DNA of 64,000 nt from an uncultured Candidatus Rokubacteria bacterium (GTDB taxonomy: Bacteria > Methylomirabilota > Methylomirabilia > Rokubacteriales > CSP1-6). Below are positions 28,599 through 47,503 of the stretch, one piece after another (position 1 is the first letter of the stretch; the number at the start of each line of letters is the position of its first letter). Under the pieces are notes generated by a model. That model ran no database searches. It saw nothing but the letters and a program-made list of their open reading frames with translations, and had not been told where the DNA came from. The position numbers and the translations under genes were made by a program. The stretch is from assembly GCA_963789955.1 (NCBI GenBank), contig CAWBMV010000034.1, forward strand, positions 1 through 64,000. Reading direction: 5' to 3'.

Positions 28599-29660
<1,062 letters not shown>

Positions 29661-29726
29661 GCAGCGCAATGTACACGCGAAGGGCCGACTCTTCAACGGC
29701 CACGCCATGTTACCCTTCGACCCGCG

Positions 29727-32017
29727 GTGAACCGTCTGGAGCTCCTGGACCGGATCCAGAAGAAGGTGCTGTGGCTCGGCACCTACATGGTCCACCACGC
29801 CAACGCGCTCCGTCCGAACGCGGACGGCCTGAAGGTCGGCGGCCACCAGGCGTCGTCGTCCTCGATCGTCAGCCTGCTGACCGCGCTCTACTTCGACGCG
29901 CTCCGTCCCGACGATCTCGTCGCCGTGAAGGCTCACGCGTCGCCGGCGTTCTACGCGATCCAGTACCTGCGCGGGCGGCTGACGGCCGAGGCGCTGCGCG
30001 AGCTGCGGACCTTCGGCGGGCTCCAGGCTTACCCGAGCCGTCGCAAGAATGCCGACGTCGTCGACCTCTCGACCGGCTCGATGGGCCTCGGCGCCGTGCA
30101 GGCGACGTTCGGAGCGCTGGCGTCGCGCTACGTCGCCGATCATTTCGGCGGTCGAGCGACGCGGGCGCGTCATCGTCATCGTCGGGGACGCCGAGCTCGA
30201 CGAGGGGAACGTGGCCGAGGCGCTGGCCGAGGAGGTCGTCGCGCGGCTGTCCAACGTCCTCTGGATCGTGGACGTGAACCGTCAGTCGCTCGACCGCATC
30301 GTGCCCGACGGGCGTCTGCGCCAGATGCGGGCGATGTTCGAGGCGGGTGGATGGCACGTCAGCGAGCTCAAGTGGGGGCGAAAGCTTCAGGCCGTCTTCG
30401 ACACGCGTGGTGGCGAGAAGCTCCGCGAGCGCCTGCAAGGGATGACGAACACGGAGTACCAGCGTCTTCTCCGCCTGCCGCCCGGCGCCGCGCGCAAGGC
30501 GCTCGTGGCGAAGGACGCGGGTGGAATCGACCGGACGCTCGACCGGCTGCTCTCCGGCACGAGCGACGCCGCGCTCGCCGAGCTCGTCGCCGACGTCGGC
30601 GGTCACGATCTCCAGCTCCTCGCCGAGGCACTCGCCGCGGCCGGGAAGGTGAGCGACCGGCCCTCGGTCATCTTCGCCAGCACCATCAAGGGCTGGGGGC
30701 TTCCGCTGGCCGGCGATCCCCTCAATCACACGATGCTCCTCACCCAGAGCCAGATCGACGAGCTGCGGGCGTCGCTCGGTATCCGCGAAGGCCGCGAGTG
30801 GGACGGGTTCGCGCCGGACAGCGAGGAAGCCAAGCTCGTGCAGCGGCTGCCGCCGCTCTTCACCGCGCCGGCACCGAGCGCGACCAGGGTCGAGATTCCC
30901 GCCGAGCTCGACGAGAGCTACCCGGCGGAGTGCTCGAGCCAGGAGGCGTTCGGTCGCGTGCTCGGCGCGCTGAGCCGGCTGCCGGCGGCGGATCGCATCG
31001 TGACGGTGTCGGCCGACGTCGCGATCACCACGCACCTGGCGGGGTGGATCAACCGCAAGGGCGTCTACTATCCCGAGGCGCGGCGGAACCCGTTCGCGGA
31101 CGTGCCTCAGGCCATGCAGTGGAAGGAGTCGCCGAGCGGTCAGCACATCGAGCTCGGTATCGCCGAGCACAACTTGTTCCTGCTCCTCGGCGCCCTGGGT
31201 CTCTCGCGCGAGCTCCTCGGCGAGACCTTGCTGCCGATCGGCACGCTCTACGATCCCTTCGTCACCCGTGGGCTGGACGCGCTCTATCACGCGCTCTACT
31301 CCGGCTCGCGCTTCGTCGTGGCGGCGACGCCGTCGGGCGTGACGCTCTCGCCGGAGGGCGGCGCGCACCAGTCGGTGATCACGCCCGGGATCGGCGTCGC
31401 GCTGCCGGGGATCGTGTTCTGGGACCCGACGTTCGCCCGCGACGTCGAGTGGATCCTGCTCGACGCGCTTCGCGGTCTCGCCGAGGGCCGCGGCGAGGCG
31501 GCGTACCTGCGACTCTCGACTCGGCCGATCGACCAGTCGCAGGCGCTTGCCGCCGAGTCCGGCGTACCAGACCGACGTGCTGCGCGGGGCCTACCGGCTG
31601 GTGGACGCGCGGAGCGAGCCGGGCTGGGATCCCGAGGTGAACGCGGTCAGCCTCTTTGCCGCCGGTGTCACCGTTCCCGAGGCGATCACGGCGCAGCGCG
31701 CGCTCCGCGAGCGCGGCATCCTGGCGAGCGTCTTCGCGGTGACGAGCCCCGACCGCCTCTATCGCGGTCTGCGAGACGCGCGTCCATATCTCGAAGATCT
31801 CGTGAGCGCCGACGAGGAAGGCGTGCCCGTCGTCTCGGTGCTCGACGGCCACTCGCACGCGCTCGCCTTCATCGGGGCCGCGCTCGGGGTGCCGCAGCAG
31901 GCGCTCGGCGTGGACGACTTCGGTCAGTCCGGGGCGCGCGGCGATCTGTATCGGCACTACGGGATCGACTCGGCCGCCATCGCGCGGGCGGCGCAGGTCC
32001 TGCTGGGCGGGGTATAA
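29727..32017 (+). CDS. aceE: Pyruvate dehydrogenase E1 (AceE-like, transketolase-type TPP enzyme); frameshifts near 30150 and 31545
   Basis: KVGGHQASS, GGLQAYPSR, GDAELDEGN, NRQSLD, IELGIAEHN, EGGAHQS, LGVDDFGQSG. Confidence 0.8.
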
Positions 32018-32030
32018 TTCGCTCAACCCC

Positions 32031-33506
32031 ATGTCGACCTTGACGGATTCCAGGAAACGCGATCTCCGGCGCGAGCTGGAGTCGATCGTCGGCCCCGGCG
32101 CGGTGCTGTCGGACCCCGACGAGCTGATGGTCTACGAATCCGACGGGCTGACCTTGTTCCGGGCGCTCGCTGACTTCGTCGTCTTCCCGACATCGGCCCA
32201 GCACGTCTCGGCAGTCGTGAAGCTCGCGAACCGCGAGAACCTTCCGTTCGTCGCCCGCGGCGCGGGCACCGGGCTCTCGGGCGGATGCCTGCCCACCGAG
32301 GGCGGCATCGTGATCTCGATGATGCGGATGAACCGGGTGCTCGAGGTCGACTACGAGAACCAGCTCGCCGTCGTCGAGCCCGGGCTCGTCAACCTGCACC
32401 TCTCCTGGAAGGTCGGCCCCCGCGGCTACTACTACGCGCCCGATCCCTCGAGCCAGCAGGCGTGCACGATCGGCGGCAACATCGCCAACAACTCCGGCGG
32501 CCCGCACACCTTGAAGTACGGCGTCACCACGAATCACGTGCTCGGCCTCGAAGTGGTCATGCCCGACGGCGAGATCGTGTGGCTCGGCGGCAAGACGCGG
32601 GAGGCGTGCGGCTACGACCTGGCCGGCGTTTTCGTCGGCTCCGAGGGCACGTTCGGGATCGCCACGCGGATCGTCGTCCGCATCCTCAAGAAGCCGCAGG
32701 CCGTCAAGACCGTGCTCGCGGTGTTCGACGCGATCGATCAGGCGTCGGCCGCCGTGTCGGCCATCATCGCGCGCGGACTCGTGCCGGCGGCGATGGAGAT
32801 GATCGACCACCTGACGATCCAGGCGGTCGAGGACGCGTTCAACTGCGGCTACCCGCGCGACGCCGACGCGGCGCTCCTCATCGAGCTGGACGGGCTCGCC
32901 GTCGGGATGGACGTTCAGGCCGAGCACATCGTCGAGGCGTGCCGCGAGTCGGGCGCGCGCGAGGTGCGCACGGCGCGGAGCGAGGCCGAGCGGCAGCTCC
33001 TCTGGAAGGGCCGCAAGTCCGCGTTCGGCGCGTACGGCCGCGTGTCGCCGGCCTACATGGTGATGGACGGCGTCATCCCGCGCACGAAGCTTCCGTACGT
33101 GCTCCGCCGGGTGAACGAGATCGTCGCCGCCGCGGGGCTCCGCGTCGGCAACGTGTTCCACGCCGGCGACGGCAACCTGCATCCCAACATCCTCTACGAT
33201 CCGCGCAAGCCGGGCGAGGAGGCGCGCGTCGTGGCGGCCGGCGCCGAGATCATGAAGGTGTGCGCTCAAGTTGGTGGATCGATCTCCGGCGAGCACGGCA
33301 TCGGCCTCGAGAAAGCCGACTTCATGCCGTTCATTTTTTCCGCCGCAGATCTTGCCCTCATGCATCGGCTGAAGAGCGCGTTCAATCCGTCCGGACTGTG
33401 CAACCCGGGCAAGATCTTCCCGACGAAGAAGTCCTGCGGCGAAGTCGGGCCCGTCGCGTATCGGCCGCACGCGATCGAAGAAAAGGGCCTCGCCCAGCGC
33501 TTCTAG
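32031..33506 (+). CDS. glcD: Glycolate oxidase FAD-linked subunit GlcD
   Basis: RGAGTGLSGG, PDPSSQ..CTIGGN, GSEGTFG, FHAGDGNLHP, GEHGIG, NPGKIFP. Confidence 0.9.
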   Translation: MSTLTDSRKRDLRRELESIVGPGAVLSDPDELMVYESDGLTLFRALADFVVFPTSAQHVSAVVKLANRENLPFVARGAGTGLSGGCLPTEGGIVISMMRMNRVLEVDYENQLAVVEPGLVNLHLSWKVGPRGYYYAPDPSSQQACTIGGNIANNSGGPHTLKYGVTTNHVLGLEVVMPDGEIVWLGGKTREACGYDLAGVFVGSEGTFGIATRIVVRILKKPQAVKTVLAVFDAIDQASAAVSAIIARGLVPAAMEMIDHLTIQAVEDAFNCGYPRDADAALLIELDGLAVGMDVQAEHIVEACRESGAREVRTARSEAERQLLWKGRKSAFGAYGRVSPAYMVMDGVIPRTKLPYVLRRVNEIVAAAGLRVGNVFHAGDGNLHPNILYDPRKPGEEARVVAAGAEIMKVCAQVGGSISGEHGIGLEKADFMPFIFSAADLALMHRLKSAFNPSGLCNPGKIFPTKKSCGEVGPVAYRPHAIEEKGLAQRF

Positions 33507-39187: not shown

Positions 39188-39378
39188 GCCGCCGACTCGG
39201 TCTTCGACTCGTTCCCGATCGCGTCGTCGACGAGCGCGACGACCCGCCGAGCGACGCGGAAGAGCTCAGCCTCGAACAGCTGGACCAGATCGCACGCCGG
39301 GCGCCACGCGACGAGCCGGAGATCCGCGATCAGCCGCCCGCTTTGGGAGCGACCCCCGCCGCCACGCCCTCGCGGTGA
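39184..39378 (+). CDS. Small hypothetical acidic protein
   Basis: ATGA-coupled to the upstream gene; 64 aa; overlaps the moeB 3' end. Confidence 0.35.
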
Positions 39379-40559
39379 CCGTCGGTCGTCGACACTTCGC
39401 AGGCGGCGCCCGCGCCGTTTCGGTGGACCGCAAGATCGGTGATCGTGGGCGAGGTCCCGCAGAGCGGGCACTTCGGATCGCGGCGCAGCCTGACCTCGCG
39501 GAAGCGCATCCCGAGCGCGTCGTAGGTGAGGAGCCGGCCGATCAGCGGCTCGCCGATGCCGAGCAGGAGCTTCACGGCCTCCGTCGCCTGAATCGTTCCA
39601 ACCACTCCTGGGAGCACGCCCAGGACGCCAGCCTCGCTTCAGGAGGGGACGAGACCCGGCGGCGGCGGCGTCGGATAGAGGCACCGATAGCAGGGCCCCT
39701 GATTCGGCGCGAACACCGTCGCCATGCCCTCGAACTGGAAGATCGACCCGTGGACGTTGGTCTTGCCGGCCAGGTAGCAGGCGTCGTTCACCAGATAGCG
39801 CGTCTCGAAGTTGTCCGAGCCGTCGACGATCAGGTCGTAGTCCTTGATGATGTCCATCACGTTGTCGACGGTGATGCGCGTCGGCAGCGCGACGATGTTG
39901 ACGTCCGGGTTGAGGGCCTTCAGGGTGCGCGTCGCGGACTCGACCTTCGGCTTGCCGACGTCGGCGGTCGTGTGAAGGATCTGGCGCTGAAGATTCGTGA
40001 TGTCGACGGTGTCGCCGTCCATCAGCCCGAGCGTCCCCACGCCGGCCGCCGCCAGATAGAAGGCCGTCGGCGAGCCCAGACCGCCGGCGCCGATCAGGAG
40101 GACCTTGGAGCGCAGGAGCTTGCGCTGCCCCTTGTCTCCGACCTGAGGCAGGAGGAAGTGACGGCTGTAGCGCTGGATCTGGTCCTGAGTCATCGGGACG
40201 TCGCGGACGGTCGGCATGCCCGACTGCACCCACTTCTGGTACCCGCCCTGAAGGTTGATGACCGTCGAGTAGCCCAAATCTTTCAGAGCCTTCGCGGCGA
40301 GCATGGACCGAAGCCCGGTCTGGCAGTAGAGCACGACCGGGGTCGAGGGGTCGCTCACGGCGGTCCCGACCCGGAACTCGAGGAATCCGCGGCTGATGTT
40401 GGTCGCCGCCTCGAGATGGCCGTCGCGGAACTCGTCGGGATCCCGTACGTCAATGACCACGATCTTTTCGCCCGCGGCGAGACGGCGGGCGACCTCGGCC
40501 GGCCCCTCCTCGGGAACGACCTGCCGCGCTTCACCGAGCATGTCCTTCAGGGTCTTCAT
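39330..40559 (-). CDS. moeB: Rhodanese-MoeB/ThiF adenylyltransferase with in-frame TGA at codon 307 (candidate selenocysteine)
   Basis: Rhodanese [14 protein letters not shown], then [53 protein letters not shown] in a single frame. Confidence 0.9.
39606..39625 (-). promoter_or_regulatory. Candidate bacterial SECIS hairpin
   Basis: UCCUGGG-CGUGCU-CCCAGGA, starting 13 nt after the in-frame UGA at 39639-39641. Confidence 0.6.
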
Positions 40560-40664
40560 GGTGTCGATTTTACCATTACCGTCATTCCCGGTCGGTTCGA
40601 GGGTGATCCGCAATCCAGGACCCTTCGCTCCGGCCGAACGCGGCTGCTATACTCACAGAATTCC

Positions 40665-41549
40665 ATGACGAATTCCATCAAGGGAATCATCCTCGCAGGT
40701 GGATCGGGAACGCGACTTTACCCGCTGACCCACGCCGTGAGCAAGCAGCTGGTCCCGATCTACAACAAGCCGATGATCTACTACCCCCTCTCCACCTTGA
40801 TGCTCGCGGGCATCTCGAAGGTTCTCGTGATCACGACCCCGCAAGATCAGGACGCCTTCCGGAGGCTGCTCGGCGACGGAAGGCACCTGGGGCTCAGCAT
40901 CGAGTACGCCGCGCAGCCCAAGCCCGAGGGCCTGGCCCAGGCGTTCATCATCGGCCGGCGCTTCGTGGGGAATGACCGAGTGGCCCTGGCCCTGGGCGAC
41001 AACGTCTTCTACGGCCACGGCTTGCCGGAGTATCTCAAGCACGCCGCCGACCGCCCGGCCGGCGCGACGGTGTTCGCCTACTGGGTCCGCGATCCCGAGC
41101 GCTACGGGGTCGTCGAGTTCGGCGCCGACGGCCGCGCGGTCGGGCTCGAGGAAAAGCCGGTCAAGCCGCGTTCCTCGTACGCCGTCACCGGGCTCTACTT
41201 CTACGACAACCAGGTGCTCGACATCGCGGCGGGTCTCAAGCCGTCGGCGCGCGGCGAGCTCGAGATCACCGACGTGAACGCCGCCTATCTGCGGCGCGGG
41301 CAGCTCCAGGTCGAGAAGCTCGGCCGCGGGATCGCGTGGCTCGACACCGGGACCCATGAGGCACTCCTGGACGCGTCGACCTTCATCCGCACGATCGAGG
41401 AGCGGCAGGGGCTGATGGTCGCGTGCGTGGAGGAGATCGCGTTCCGCATGGGCTACATCACGAGCGACGACGTGCTCCGCATCGGGCGTTCGATGAAGGA
41501 CAACTCGTACGGGCAGTATCTGTTGCGCCTGTTCGAGTCCGAGCCGTAA
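40665..41549 (+). CDS. rfbA: Glucose-1-phosphate thymidylyltransferase
   Basis: [45 protein letters not shown]. Confidence 0.97.
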
Positions 41550-41562
41550 GATCGGGACCTCG

Positions 41563-42099
41563 ATGGATCTCACGCCCGCCGCCAAGCGCGCCTACCAGGT
41601 CCAGTCGTACGGCCCCGCTCCGACGATCGAAGGCGTCCAGATCGTCGAGCTCAAGCGCTTCTCGGACGACGGTGGGAGCATGACCGAGCTGGCGCGTCTG
41701 ACCGACGGACATCCCCAGGCGTTCGACGGCTTCTCCGTTCGCCAGATCAACTACAGCGAGGTCGAGCCCGGCGCGATCAAGGCGTTTCATCTCCACCAGC
41801 GCCAGACGGATATCTGGTACGTGCCCCCGTCCGACCGGATGCTCGTCGTGCTGGTCGACGTGCGGGTGGGCTCGAAGACCGAGGGGACGCGCATGCGTCT
41901 CACCCTGGGCGCGGGGGGCTCTCGCATGGTGCGCATCCCGCCCGGCGTCGCGCACGGCGTGTGCAATCTCTCGTCCGCGCCGGGCCGCATCATCTACTTC
42001 ACCGACGTCCATTTCTCGCCCGAGCCCGCGATGTGCGACGAGGGCCGGTTGCCGTGGGACTATGCCGGCGCAGAGATCTGGGACGTGACGCGAGGGTAG
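41563..42099 (+). CDS. rfbC: dTDP-4-dehydrorhamnose 3,5-epimerase family cupin
   Basis: IKAFHLHQRQTD, LVDVRVGSKT, IPPGVAHG; lies between rfbA and rfbB. Confidence 0.8.
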   Translation: MDLTPAAKRAYQVQSYGPAPTIEGVQIVELKRFSDDGGSMTELARLTDGHPQAFDGFSVRQINYSEVEPGAIKAFHLHQRQTDIWYVPPSDRMLVVLVDVRVGSKTEGTRMRLTLGAGGSRMVRIPPGVAHGVCNLSSAPGRIIYFTDVHFSPEPAMCDEGRLPWDYAGAEIWDVTRG

Positions 42100-42103
42100 G
42101 GCG

Positions 42104-43102
42104 GTGAAGCTGCTGGTCACCGGCGGAAGCGGCTTCATCGGCTCCAACTTCATCCGGCACGTCCTCACGACGCACCCGGACGACCGCGTCGTCAATCTCG
42201 ACAAGCTGACCTACGCGGGGAATCCCGCCAACCTGGCCGATCTCGAGCACGACCCGCGCTACGCGTTTCTCCAGGGCGACGTCTGTGACGGCAAGATCGT
42301 GCGCGACGCCTGCCGCGGGGTCGACGCCGTCGTCAATTTCGCCGCGGAGTCCCACGTCGACCGCTCGCTGATGGAGCCCGACGCGTTCCTCAAGACCGAC
42401 GTGTTCGGCGTCTTCACCCTGCTCGAGGCGGTGCGCGAGCTCAAGATTCCGCGCTTCCTGCACGTCAGCACCGACGAGGTGTACGGCTCGGTCGAGCGCG
42501 GCTCCTCGCGCGAGAGCGATCCGGTGCGGCCGTCCAATCCGTACTCGGCCTCCAAGGCGGGCGGCGACCTGCTCGCGCTGGCCTACTGGCACACCCATCG
42601 CGTGCCCGTCGTGATCACGCGGTCGTCCAACAACTTCGGGCCCAACCAGTACCCGGAGAAGGTCATCCCGCTGTTCGTGACGAACGCGCTCGACGACCAG
42701 GCGCTGCCGCTCTACGGCGACGGACGGAACGTGCGCGACTGGCTCTACGTCCTGGACAATTGCGCGGGCATCGACCTGGTGCTGCGCCGCGGCGCCGACG
42801 GCGAGGTCTACAACATCGGTGGCGGCCACGAGGTCGAGAACATCGTCCTCACGCGCCAGATCTTGCAGCTCACCGGCAAGCCCGAGACCTTGATCCAGCC
42901 CGTGAAGGATCGCCCGGGTCATGACCGGCGCTACTCGGTCGACTCGAAAAAAGTCCACCAGCTCGGCTGGACGCCGCGGCACCGGTTCGGCGACGCCCTG
43001 CGGGCGACCGTCGAGTGGTATCGTGAGCACGAATCCTGGTGGCGCCCGCTCAAGTCCGGCGAGTTTCGCGCGTACTACGAGCGACAGTACGGCCGCCGCT
43101 GA
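42104..43102 (+). CDS. rfbB: dTDP-glucose 4,6-dehydratase
   Basis: TGGSGFIG, DKLTYAGN, FAAESHVDRS, VSTDEVYG, YSASK, DRPGHDRRY. Confidence 0.97.
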   Translation: MKLLVTGGSGFIGSNFIRHVLTTHPDDRVVNLDKLTYAGNPANLADLEHDPRYAFLQGDVCDGKIVRDACRGVDAVVNFAAESHVDRSLMEPDAFLKTDVFGVFTLLEAVRELKIPRFLHVSTDEVYGSVERGSSRESDPVRPSNPYSASKAGGDLLALAYWHTHRVPVVITRSSNNFGPNQYPEKVIPLFVTNALDDQALPLYGDGRNVRDWLYVLDNCAGIDLVLRRGADGEVYNIGGGHEVENIVLTRQILQLTGKPETLIQPVKDRPGHDRRYSVDSKKVHQLGWTPRHRFGDALRATVEWYREHESWWRPLKSGEFRAYYERQYGRR

Positions 43103-46329: not shown

Positions 46330-47503
46330 ATGGAGAAGTTTCGGGGCGTCGACTACTACGCGATCGAAGGCTTGCTGTCGGAAGAAGAGCGGATGATCCG
46401 CGACGCGGTCCGCGACTGGGTCGAGGCCGAGTTCCTGCCGCTCGATCACGGACCATCATCGCGCCGGCACGTTTCCGGTCGAGCTCATCCCGAAGCTCGG
46501 CGAGCTCGGCGTCTTCGGCGCCACGCTCAAGGGCTACGGCTGCGCCGGGCTCAACAACGTCGCCTACGGCCTGATCATGCAGGAGCTCGAGCGCGGCGAC
46601 TCCGGCCTGCGCTCGGCGGCGTCGGTGCAGAGCGGGCTCGTGATGTACCCGATCTACACCTATGGCTCCGAGGCGCAAAAGGACACGTGGCTGCCCGCGA
46701 TGGCCCGTGGCGAGAAGGTCGGCTGCTTCGGGCTCACCGAGCCCGACCACGGCTCCGACCCGGGCGGCATGAAGACGCGCGCGAAGCGCCAGGGCGACAG
46801 CTACGTCCTGAACGGCACGAAGCTCTGGATCACCAACGGCTCGATCGCCGACGTCGCGGTGGTGTGGGCGAAGGAGGACGACGGCGAGATCTACGGCTAT
46901 CTGGTCGAGCGCGGGACGCCGGGATTCGGGACGCTCGACATCCACGGCAAGTTCTCGATGCGCGCCTCGATCACGTCCGAGCTCTCGTTCCAGGACTGTC
47001 GCATCCCGCTCGCCAACAAGCTCCCGAACGTGAAGGGGCTGCGCGGGCCGCTCGGCTGTCTCAACCAGGCGCGCTACGGCATCGCGTGGGGCGCCGTCGG
47101 CGCGGCGATGGGCTGCTACGACTGGGCGCTCCAGTACTCGCAGCAACGCATCCAGTTCGGCAAGCCGATCGGGACCTTCCAGCTCGTGCAGCAGAAGCTC
47201 GTCACGATGATCACGGAGATCACCAAGGCGCAGCTCCTGTGTCTGCAGCTCGGCCGGCTGAAGGACGCGGGCCAGGCTCGCCCGCAGCAGGTCTCGATGG
47301 CCAAGATGAACAACGTGCAGATCGCGCTCGACACGGCGCGGCTCGCGCGCGACATCCTGGGCGCGGCCGGCATCGTCGACGAGCATCCGGTGATCCGGCA
47401 CATGATGAATCTGGAGACCGTCAACACGTACGAAGGGACGCACGACATCCACACCCTCATCATCGGCCGTGACATCACGGGCCTCGATGCGTTCGGGATG
47501 TGA
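46330..47503 (+). CDS. Glutaryl-CoA dehydrogenase-like acyl-CoA dehydrogenase; frameshift near 46449
   Basis: QELERGDSGLRS..SVQSGLVMYPI, GCFGLTEPDHGSDPG, NLETVNTYEGTHDIH. Confidence 0.88.

Follow-up and report, generated by a model that had tools for sequence, protein, structure and literature searches.

A predicted selenocysteine-containing rhodanese-MoeB in a Rokubacteria-type soil lineage

Within the window, that is the whole 64,000 nt stretch of contig CAWBMV010000034.1 analysed here, one gene is listed as two open reading frames, which raises the question of whether these are two genes or one gene with a TGA that is read as selenocysteine (Sec). An earlier note on this DNA favoured the latter, and the two halves do lie in a single frame, on the minus strand from 40559 to 39330, with 409 codons plus a stop and the TGA at codon 307 as the sole internal stop; the translation around it reads LVPS*SEAG. 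The best explanation, to which a probability of about 0.93 is given, is that this is an intact, housekeeping rhodanese-MoeB selenoprotein.

When the TGA is translated as U the product scores 531.6 bits against the NCBIfam equivalog PRK08762 (NF006444) over residues 5-376, the curated cut-off being 449, and has the architecture of that family, an N-terminal rhodanese followed by a ThiF domain (Table 1), in agreement with the 409-aa enzyme with a rhodanese cysteine that had been proposed. Both hallmarks of MoeB and ThiF are present, the nucleotide-binding GxGxxG, which as GAGGLG we take to be the ATP-binding motif, and two CxxC motifs, which are presumably zinc sites as in MoeB/ThiF. The fold is clear as judged from matches to solved structures. 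In these alignments TGA307 falls on Cys187 of E. coli MoeB, Cys184 of ThiF and the catalytic Cys of C. thermophilum Uba4, the conserved E1 cysteine at which the TGA had been placed (residue numbers are counted from the printed alignments, the C. thermophilum Uba4 chain giving 200 where papers say 202). Read-through of the TGA recovers the complete ThiF profile together with the second CxxC.

Table 1. Features of the rhodanese-MoeB gene (positions in the window) and carrier genes of the same genome. A1 is an alignment of 20 aligned single-Sec/Cys relatives.
Feature	Position	Strand	Basis or remark
Whole gene: N-terminal rhodanese + MoeB/ThiF E1-like adenylyltransferase	39330..40559	-	409 aa with TGA307 as predicted Sec; PRK08762
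Rhodanese domain, aa 21-112	40224..40499	-	Pfam PF00581, E 1.9e-19
Rhodanese active-site Cys79 (TGC; loop CQTGLR)	40323..40325	-	Invariant in A1; TGA in six related genomes
ThiF/MoeB adenylation domain, aa 131-365, includes TGA	39465..40169	-	Pfam PF00899, E 2.4e-87, profile positions 1-237 of 238
GAGGLG motif, aa 157-162	40074..40091	-	Invariant in A1; aligned to MoeB/ThiF/Uba4
First CxxC (C290/C293), 5' of TGA	39681..39692	-	Alignment with solved structures and A1
In-frame TGA, codon 307, predicted Sec at crossover-loop Cys position	39639..39641	-	Alignment and conservation
Predicted bacterial SECIS, 7-bp upper stem + 6-nt loop	39606..39625	-	bSECIS model constraints; stem conservation
Second CxxC (C364/C367), 3' of TGA; lost if UGA terminates	39459..39470	-	Alignment with solved structures and A1
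Tail Cys387 in otherwise variable tail	39399..39401	-	Nearly invariant in A1
ThiS/MoaD-like gene, about 1.1 kb upstream of selC	own genome (G000) C1:730634-730858 (L199:1501-1725)	+	
Carrier 1			Beside thiG and thiE
Carrier 2			Fused to MoaE
Carrier 3			Fused to JAB domain, after PLP enzyme
Carrier 4			After another PLP enzyme
Carrier 5			Beside aldehyde ferredoxin oxidoreductase
Carrier 6			Beside Moco-binding protein
Carrier 7			Beside TtuA
Carrier 8 (the ThiS/MoaD-like gene above)			Upstream of selC
Carrier 9			Among transporters

The assembly is a draft that is 87% complete with 5% contamination, and a gene could be split in this way by an error of sequencing or assembly or by a nonsense mutation that arose recently. 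The chance of this is negligible, as the order-level survey found 70 loci in 61 genomes, of which 52 have TGA at codon 307 (one per genome, this genome included) and 18 have TGC or TGT, and 160 of 251 genomes of the phylum carry the exact pattern around the TGA, with no match for the reversed control. The TGA is also spanned by an independent contig of RNA run X4 (39580-39723), with 0 differences among the matches listed, which answers the proposed check of TGA against TGC; contigs of runs X2 and X10 cover it, again with 0 differences among the matches listed, with just 15 letters on one side. These RNA-run sequences are contigs and not reads from the source sample, and their coverage of the gene says nothing on transcription or its level. 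The 160 matches include three unpublished genomes (G104, G135, G243), whilst a further unpublished genome, G025, counts as a miss in the order-level survey, the phylum pattern search and the family E1 count given below. By family, the pattern is found in 133 of 158 genomes of this family and 18 of 21 of family f4, and in none of families f7, f8 and f13. In one relative (L062, G011 C27:124620-125849), whose genome is 66% complete, the TGA gene appears frameshifted 5' of the TGA.

A search of GTDB with a pattern that by its construction selects for TGA gave at least 118 loci, of which 116 are MoeB with TGA at the codon-307 site. Among the matches listed (80 titles) there are at least 10 lineages, which take in Rokubacteria/Methylomirabilota, Poribacteria, Latescibacterota, Verrucomicrobiota, Actinomycetota, Chloroflexi, Planctomycetota, Nitrospinota, SAR324, Entotheonella and Syntrophaceae, and the closest loci among them are from Rokubacteria, with 86-91% identity.

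Standard gene calling gives two ORFs, as would be expected if UGA307 were a true stop, or Cys or Trp in a recoded genome, with the 3' part a separate or dead gene. It is highly improbable that this is the case. TGA ends 2060 of the 3348 long coding-like ORFs of this genome and, being its main stop, argues that the genome is not recoded. With termination at UGA307 the sole E1 found would lack its second CxxC and one quarter of the ThiF profile. Across the order the frame beyond the TGA is conserved and free of stops, and the codons that form the stem described below are fixed in TGA forms only. On the strength of these comparisons TGA307 almost certainly encodes selenocysteine at the position of the catalytic cysteine.

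The machinery that this requires had been named as a further check, and all four components were found in the same genome: on C1 a tRNA-Sec (selC, C1:731972) along with selA and selB, and on C6 selD, with selA, selB and selD scoring over their cut-offs. SelB was found in 55 of the 61 relatives. Neither selA nor selB was found in G001 and G023, two genomes that have the TGA gene and also a TGA-containing selD; the missing genes are likely to be assembly gaps. In the selD of this genome (C6:164410) a TGA (CxxU) likewise interrupts the frame, close to the start of the gene; it comes with an 8-bp hairpin that has a stem similar to that of the MoeB gene, and the HMM match to selD sets in only past this TGA. 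A choice by eye among 78 candidates gave about 30 more TGA sites that lie in Sec-like motifs and have a hairpin; these we take to be eight of the xGSC type, several UxxC thioredoxin-like, three CxxU AhpD-like, a PrdB-like and a SelW-like site. Counted by such candidates of motif and hairpin the genome is selenoprotein-rich, and a Methylomirabilota MAG with 63 predicted selenoproteins is cited in PMC13188914.

The earlier note had described a perfect 7-bp hairpin that begins 13 nt 3' of the TGA, and its 5' arm (39625-39619), loop CGUGCU (39618-39613) and 3' arm (39612-39606) are as described, with a weaker lower helix that lengthens it to about 39598-39631. Checked by hand and by script, the loop of 6 nt with G at position 2 followed by U, the stem of 7 bp, the distance of 20 nt from UGA to loop and the folding energy of -14.7 kcal/mol all agree with the bSECIS consensus (loop 3-9 nt, stem 4-16 bp, G in the first two loop positions, loop 16-37 nt after UGA, MFE <= -7.5; PMC13188914). 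The A/T-ending codons in this stretch are indeed unusual, with shares of 3.2% for CCA among Pro codons, 8.2% for GGA among Gly codons and 3.4% for GTT among Val codons (3348 coding-like ORF ends). The hairpin alone is weak evidence. The folding energy of the 45-nt stretch does not rise above that of its shuffles (mean -15.07, z 0.15), which rules it out as proof of a SECIS, and an Rfam scan of 39200-40800 gave no match at E <= 1. An equally good stem, perfect, of at least 7 bp and within the bSECIS rules, stands behind 3-5% of the ordinary stops of coding-like ORFs in this genome (111/3676 TGA, 93/2172 TAG, 23/442 TAA).

It is the conservation of the hairpin that exceeds chance. Among contexts that encode the same ten residues, at least six of the seven stem pairs are kept in 126 of 137 with TGA versus 6 of 118 with Cys (3 of 70 among GC-rich Cys contexts), and third-position entropy over codons +5 to +9 is 0.06-0.62 bits in the TGA forms versus 1.5-1.7 in the Cys forms. 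These contexts come, after removal of duplicates, from 168 TGA and 124 Cys loci, the Cys controls being same-peptide forms from metagenomes, with three loci dropped for no match or a short flank and two as non-MoeB; kin are not independent and the contrast overstates significance, so no p-value is given. Selection on the hairpin is seen where the codon is TGA and is absent where it is Cys. Of what the note had expected from an alignment of close homologues, the alternation of TGA and Cys and the keeping of the stem in TGA forms are seen, and covariation is replaced by a restricted choice of synonymous codons; strict covariation cannot arise in the main register, where the partner of every wobble base is itself fixed by the protein. 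The stem can also form one base out of register, and among the 21 distinct TGA contexts restricted to this shifted register one pair reads C-G in 10 and G-C in 9, an exchange found in Syntrophaceae and Latescibacterota. The shifted stem was rejected as evidence, as it also forms in 73 of the 118 Cys contexts. None of the outcomes named beforehand as contrary to a selenoprotein, which were TGC or TGT in reads or close relatives, an unconserved hairpin or missing selABCD, occurred.

The 18 order-level Cys loci consist of 14 distant paralogues and four close homologues with 76-83% identity. In a FastTree tree of 211 ThiF domains (219 extracted, duplicates removed, column 307 set to X in Sec rows), the four close homologues nest at two places within the Sec clade of the order, one being L036 (G022) and the others L057-L059 (G012, G006), with their stem eroded and lost; G006 and G012 retain both forms. 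Because they nest inside the Sec clade, these Cys forms are probably reversions from Sec to Cys. The whole ThiF tree needs 8 Sec/Cys changes, at least 4 of them forced by starred branches, and a single origin of Sec across phyla does not follow from it. The rhodanese is C-terminal in 11 of the 120 Sec rows of the tree set. In Sec-MoeB of the Latescibacterota type (L083, L086, L102, L106, L123, L134, L138) a Gly, and not a Cys, is aligned at rhodanese position 79, and the rhodanese of these proteins may possibly be inactive.

What the enzyme might serve is suggested by its lack of company. The rhodanese-MoeB is the one ThiF-family hit in its genome (searched genome-wide, in an assembly that is 87% complete), which has nine ThiS-family (ThiS/MoaD-type) genes (Table 1). 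Of the 37 family genomes compared, 32 carry the TGA form, one has a Cys form only and four have no full-length hit despite a rated completeness of 92-100%, and in 29 of the 32 there is no second full-length MoeB/ThiF (one fragment and two divergent ThiF-family hits). It is probably the sole E1 in its own family; in family f4 a Cys paralogue is present in 20 of 21 genomes. As the only ThiF-family E1 found in the genome it probably serves all carrier pathways, like TtuC of Thermus, and we lean a little towards it being a sole, selenium-dependent E1 hub for the thiamine, Moco and tRNA-thiolation carriers.

The immediate neighbours of the gene do not add to this. The genes rmlA, rmlC-like and rmlB (40665-43102) diverge upstream, and unknown genes lie downstream. 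Adjacency of rmlA is seen in 26 of 29 loci of this family and in none of 20 loci from other families, and a functional link to the rml genes was rejected, as the adjacency is limited to the one family. Elsewhere in the window several genes of the ORF list look frameshifted, in 28599-32043 (a presumably transketolase-like region near 30049-32017) and in 46330-47503 (presumably acyl-CoA dehydrogenase-like), which suggests indel errors in the assembly.

The following mechanism can be proposed by homology and conservation. SelB acting on the stem-loop 13-33 nt downstream would recode UGA307 as Sec. The E1 domain would adenylate the C-terminal Gly of ThiS/MoaD-type carriers, and Sec307, at the position of the thioester Cys of Uba4, would attack the acyl-adenylate to give a carrier~Sec selenoester. 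The persulfide on Cys79 of the fused rhodanese could then take over the carrier as an acyl-persulfide, from which reduction would free carrier-COSH, the product thus being a thiocarboxylate of sulfur and not of selenium. Clients may be found in thiamine synthesis (ThiS-ThiG), Moco/Wco synthesis (MoaD-MoaE and an AOR-linked carrier), tRNA thiolation (a TtuA-side carrier) and PLP/JAB-linked amino-acid pathways.

In yeast Uba4 a thioester at the aligned Cys is followed by transfer to the rhodanese persulfide (PMC6007339), the thioester has been described as helpful, not essential (PMC12954526), and the catalytic Cys is reported to guard also against oxidative self-conjugation (PMC7527816). It is possible that Sec is inserted and no acyl intermediate forms, with Sec307 resolving the bond between carrier and persulfide or blocking oxidative self-conjugation, perhaps through a selenenyl-sulfide with Cys387; this concerns the role of Sec only and is compatible with the selenoprotein call. 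Such a role would fit with C239 of MOCS3, described as cleaving the carrier-persulfide bond (PMC5372717), with Cys202 of Uba4, which under oxidative stress resolves reactive intermediates and is in communication with the linker Cys305 (PMC7527816), and with the statement that bacterial MoeB and ThiF form no thioesters (PMC12954526). However, the fused rhodanese makes this enzyme Uba4-like, and for Uba4 the thioester was shown. Cys387 is conserved within a variable tail, yet the alignments end at residue 335, short of any match to Cys305 of Uba4, and a tail Cys is present in 75 of 105 scorable Sec N-rhodanese forms and missing in the other 30, Poribacteria for example, as against its presence in 34 of 36 scorable Cys N-rhodanese forms. 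Cys387 is therefore no obligate partner of Sec, and as a Sec-specific partner it is unsupported. A literature search on the catalytic Cys of TtuC/UbaA found reviews or nothing. A resolving or protective Sec thus stays a serious contender, somewhat under an even chance, and an acyl relay in which Sec307 forms the carrier selenoester is slightly favoured over it, itself tentatively.

Sec may not be limited to codon 307 in these enzymes. Genome G023 has a second TGA at the codon for the rhodanese Cys79, and a pattern search found such a rhodanese-site TGA in 5 of 251 phylum genomes, to which a second pattern added G242 to make six. The peptide after position 79 is shared by 15 of 159 family genomes, six with TGA and nine with TGC or TGT (the nine including the unpublished G135). 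All six TGA79 forms have the same six codons, which make a 7-pair stem (5 Watson-Crick, 2 G-U) with a loop GUCC 18 nt after the UGA, and the six-codon string occurs in 0 of the 9 TGC/TGT forms; the set is small and related, the proteins being mutually 82-91% identical. Both TGAs lie in one ORF in L323 (G206), L324 (G023), L327 (G241) and L341 (G242), whilst in L325 (G233) and L326 (G234) the contig ends before codon 307, G234 having a second, one-Sec copy. SelB and tRNA-Sec were found in four of the five two-TGA genomes tested (the set without G242), and not in G023. Against the hairpin, the minimum-energy fold in 3 of 5 prefers a competing helix nearer to UGA79. In the tree five of the six form one clade (SH-aLRT 97) with G023 placed without resolution, and one origin of the two-Sec form was not accepted, as the clade support covers only five of six. 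Taken together, a variant with Sec at both the rhodanese and the E1 site very probably exists. A literature search for a double selenoprotein with rhodanese and MoeB found no such form. Rhodanese-like selenoproteins with UxxG (forms 2 and 4; PMC13188914) are alike in having what is here U-Q-T-G at the rhodanese active site, and differ in that in these six relatives it is fused to Sec-MoeB, giving two Sec in two catalytic domains. A separate arrangement is seen in Syntrophaceae-type loci (L110:2629, L116:2627, L135:2610 and, on the minus strand, L136), where the gene after Sec-MoeB encodes a distinct sulfurtransferase whose active site has the TGA (U-[HQ]-S-G-V-R), with a 7-bp hairpin, and the next one is JAB-like; in L082 there are instead a carrier gene, a JAB-like gene and one that is PLP-enzyme-like.

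The earlier note had suggested that the enzyme may pass sulfur or selenium to its carriers, and the selenium part of this is weakly supported, by a ThiS/MoaD-like gene that stands upstream of selC inside a larger conserved block. Under this proposal the enzyme would also make a selenocarboxylate on the selC-adjacent protein, which would feed Sec synthesis or another selenium pathway. The carrier gene is upstream of selB, on the same strand and within 11 kb, in 31 of the 47 genomes with a hit (in the other 16 the two are on different contigs in 13, 25 kb apart in one, and without a SelB hit in two), and lies no more than about 50-100 nt from selC in several relatives. The rhodanese-site TGA of the six relatives, and the TGA sulfurtransferase and JAB-like gene after Sec-MoeB in the four Syntrophaceae-type loci, would also suit it. 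However, the block is syntenic as a whole, running from a lipid A acyltransferase gene to selC, DUF3105, an unknown gene, selA and selB, and the upstream lipid A acyltransferase gene is kept in 10 of 11 fetched loci; because of this the neighbourhood of carrier and selC need not be functional, and as proof of selenium transfer it was rejected as confounded. The SelD of this genome is normal, there are no sel genes near the E1 gene, and an encoded Sec is a catalyst and not a selenium donor. Loading of selenium onto the carrier is very unlikely, and a joint reading, in which a sole E1 working through an acyl-selenoester and a two-Sec subclade are combined with selenium loading or with some selenium chemistry that is equally new, is unlikely also.

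The soil lineage in question is abundant, and in most of its genomes the reading given here rejoins a core enzyme whose gene call is split in two. With natural forms that have Cys, one Sec or two Sec and are 75-90% identical, the role of the crossover-loop Cys in non-canonical E1 enzymes, as an acyl relay or in a resolving or protective capacity, can be tested directly, as can the reason for keeping Sec there. Should this be the sole E1, the synthesis of thiamine, Moco and thio-tRNA in these bacteria would be gated by the supply of selenium.

That Sec-containing MoeB had been noted before is correct, the family having been predicted since 2005. MoeB was named as a new selenoprotein family from 11 Sargasso Sea sequences (PMC1088965), the GOS survey of 2008 counted 19 Sec versus 2,262 Cys MoeB sequences (PMC2398784), and in two further listings MoeB appears with one Sec, as a prediction in PMC9312934 and as one of the prokaryotic selenoproteins of PMC13188914. 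Literature searches found no biochemical study of the Sec-MoeB family, and the main text of the deep-Sep paper mentions neither MoeB, ThiF and rhodanese nor this lineage. The family is already known as a prediction; what is new here is that in this family of genomes it is nearly universal and probably the sole E1, and that relatives have a candidate two-Sec variant. As described in 2005 it is, like the gene here, a COG0476/PF00899 protein with an in-frame TGA at a conserved Cys and a downstream bacterial SECIS, there as a prediction only. The position of Sec is likely to be the same, and the marine SAR324 and Verrucomicrobiota loci with TGA307 fit with this. It differs from this soil Rokubacteria-type lineage, in which the Sec form is the norm and not rare, and in which there is an N-terminal rhodanese and, in relatives, a two-TGA variant.

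Of the other known systems, PRK08762 has the same architecture, with Sec here replacing its crossover-loop Cys. Uba4/MOCS3 likewise has an E1 domain fused to a rhodanese, and the TGA aligns to the Cys of Uba4 that forms the thioester, but the rhodanese is C-terminal in Uba4 and N-terminal here, with Sec in place of Cys and nine candidate carriers. In terms of clients there is a parallel to TtuC of Thermus thermophilus and UbaA of Haloferax, described as single E1 enzymes common to the thiamine, Moco and tRNA-thiolation carriers (PMC3980101), and the client genes of this set also occur here; they differ from this enzyme, which has a rhodanese domain of its own and would depend on the decoding of Sec.
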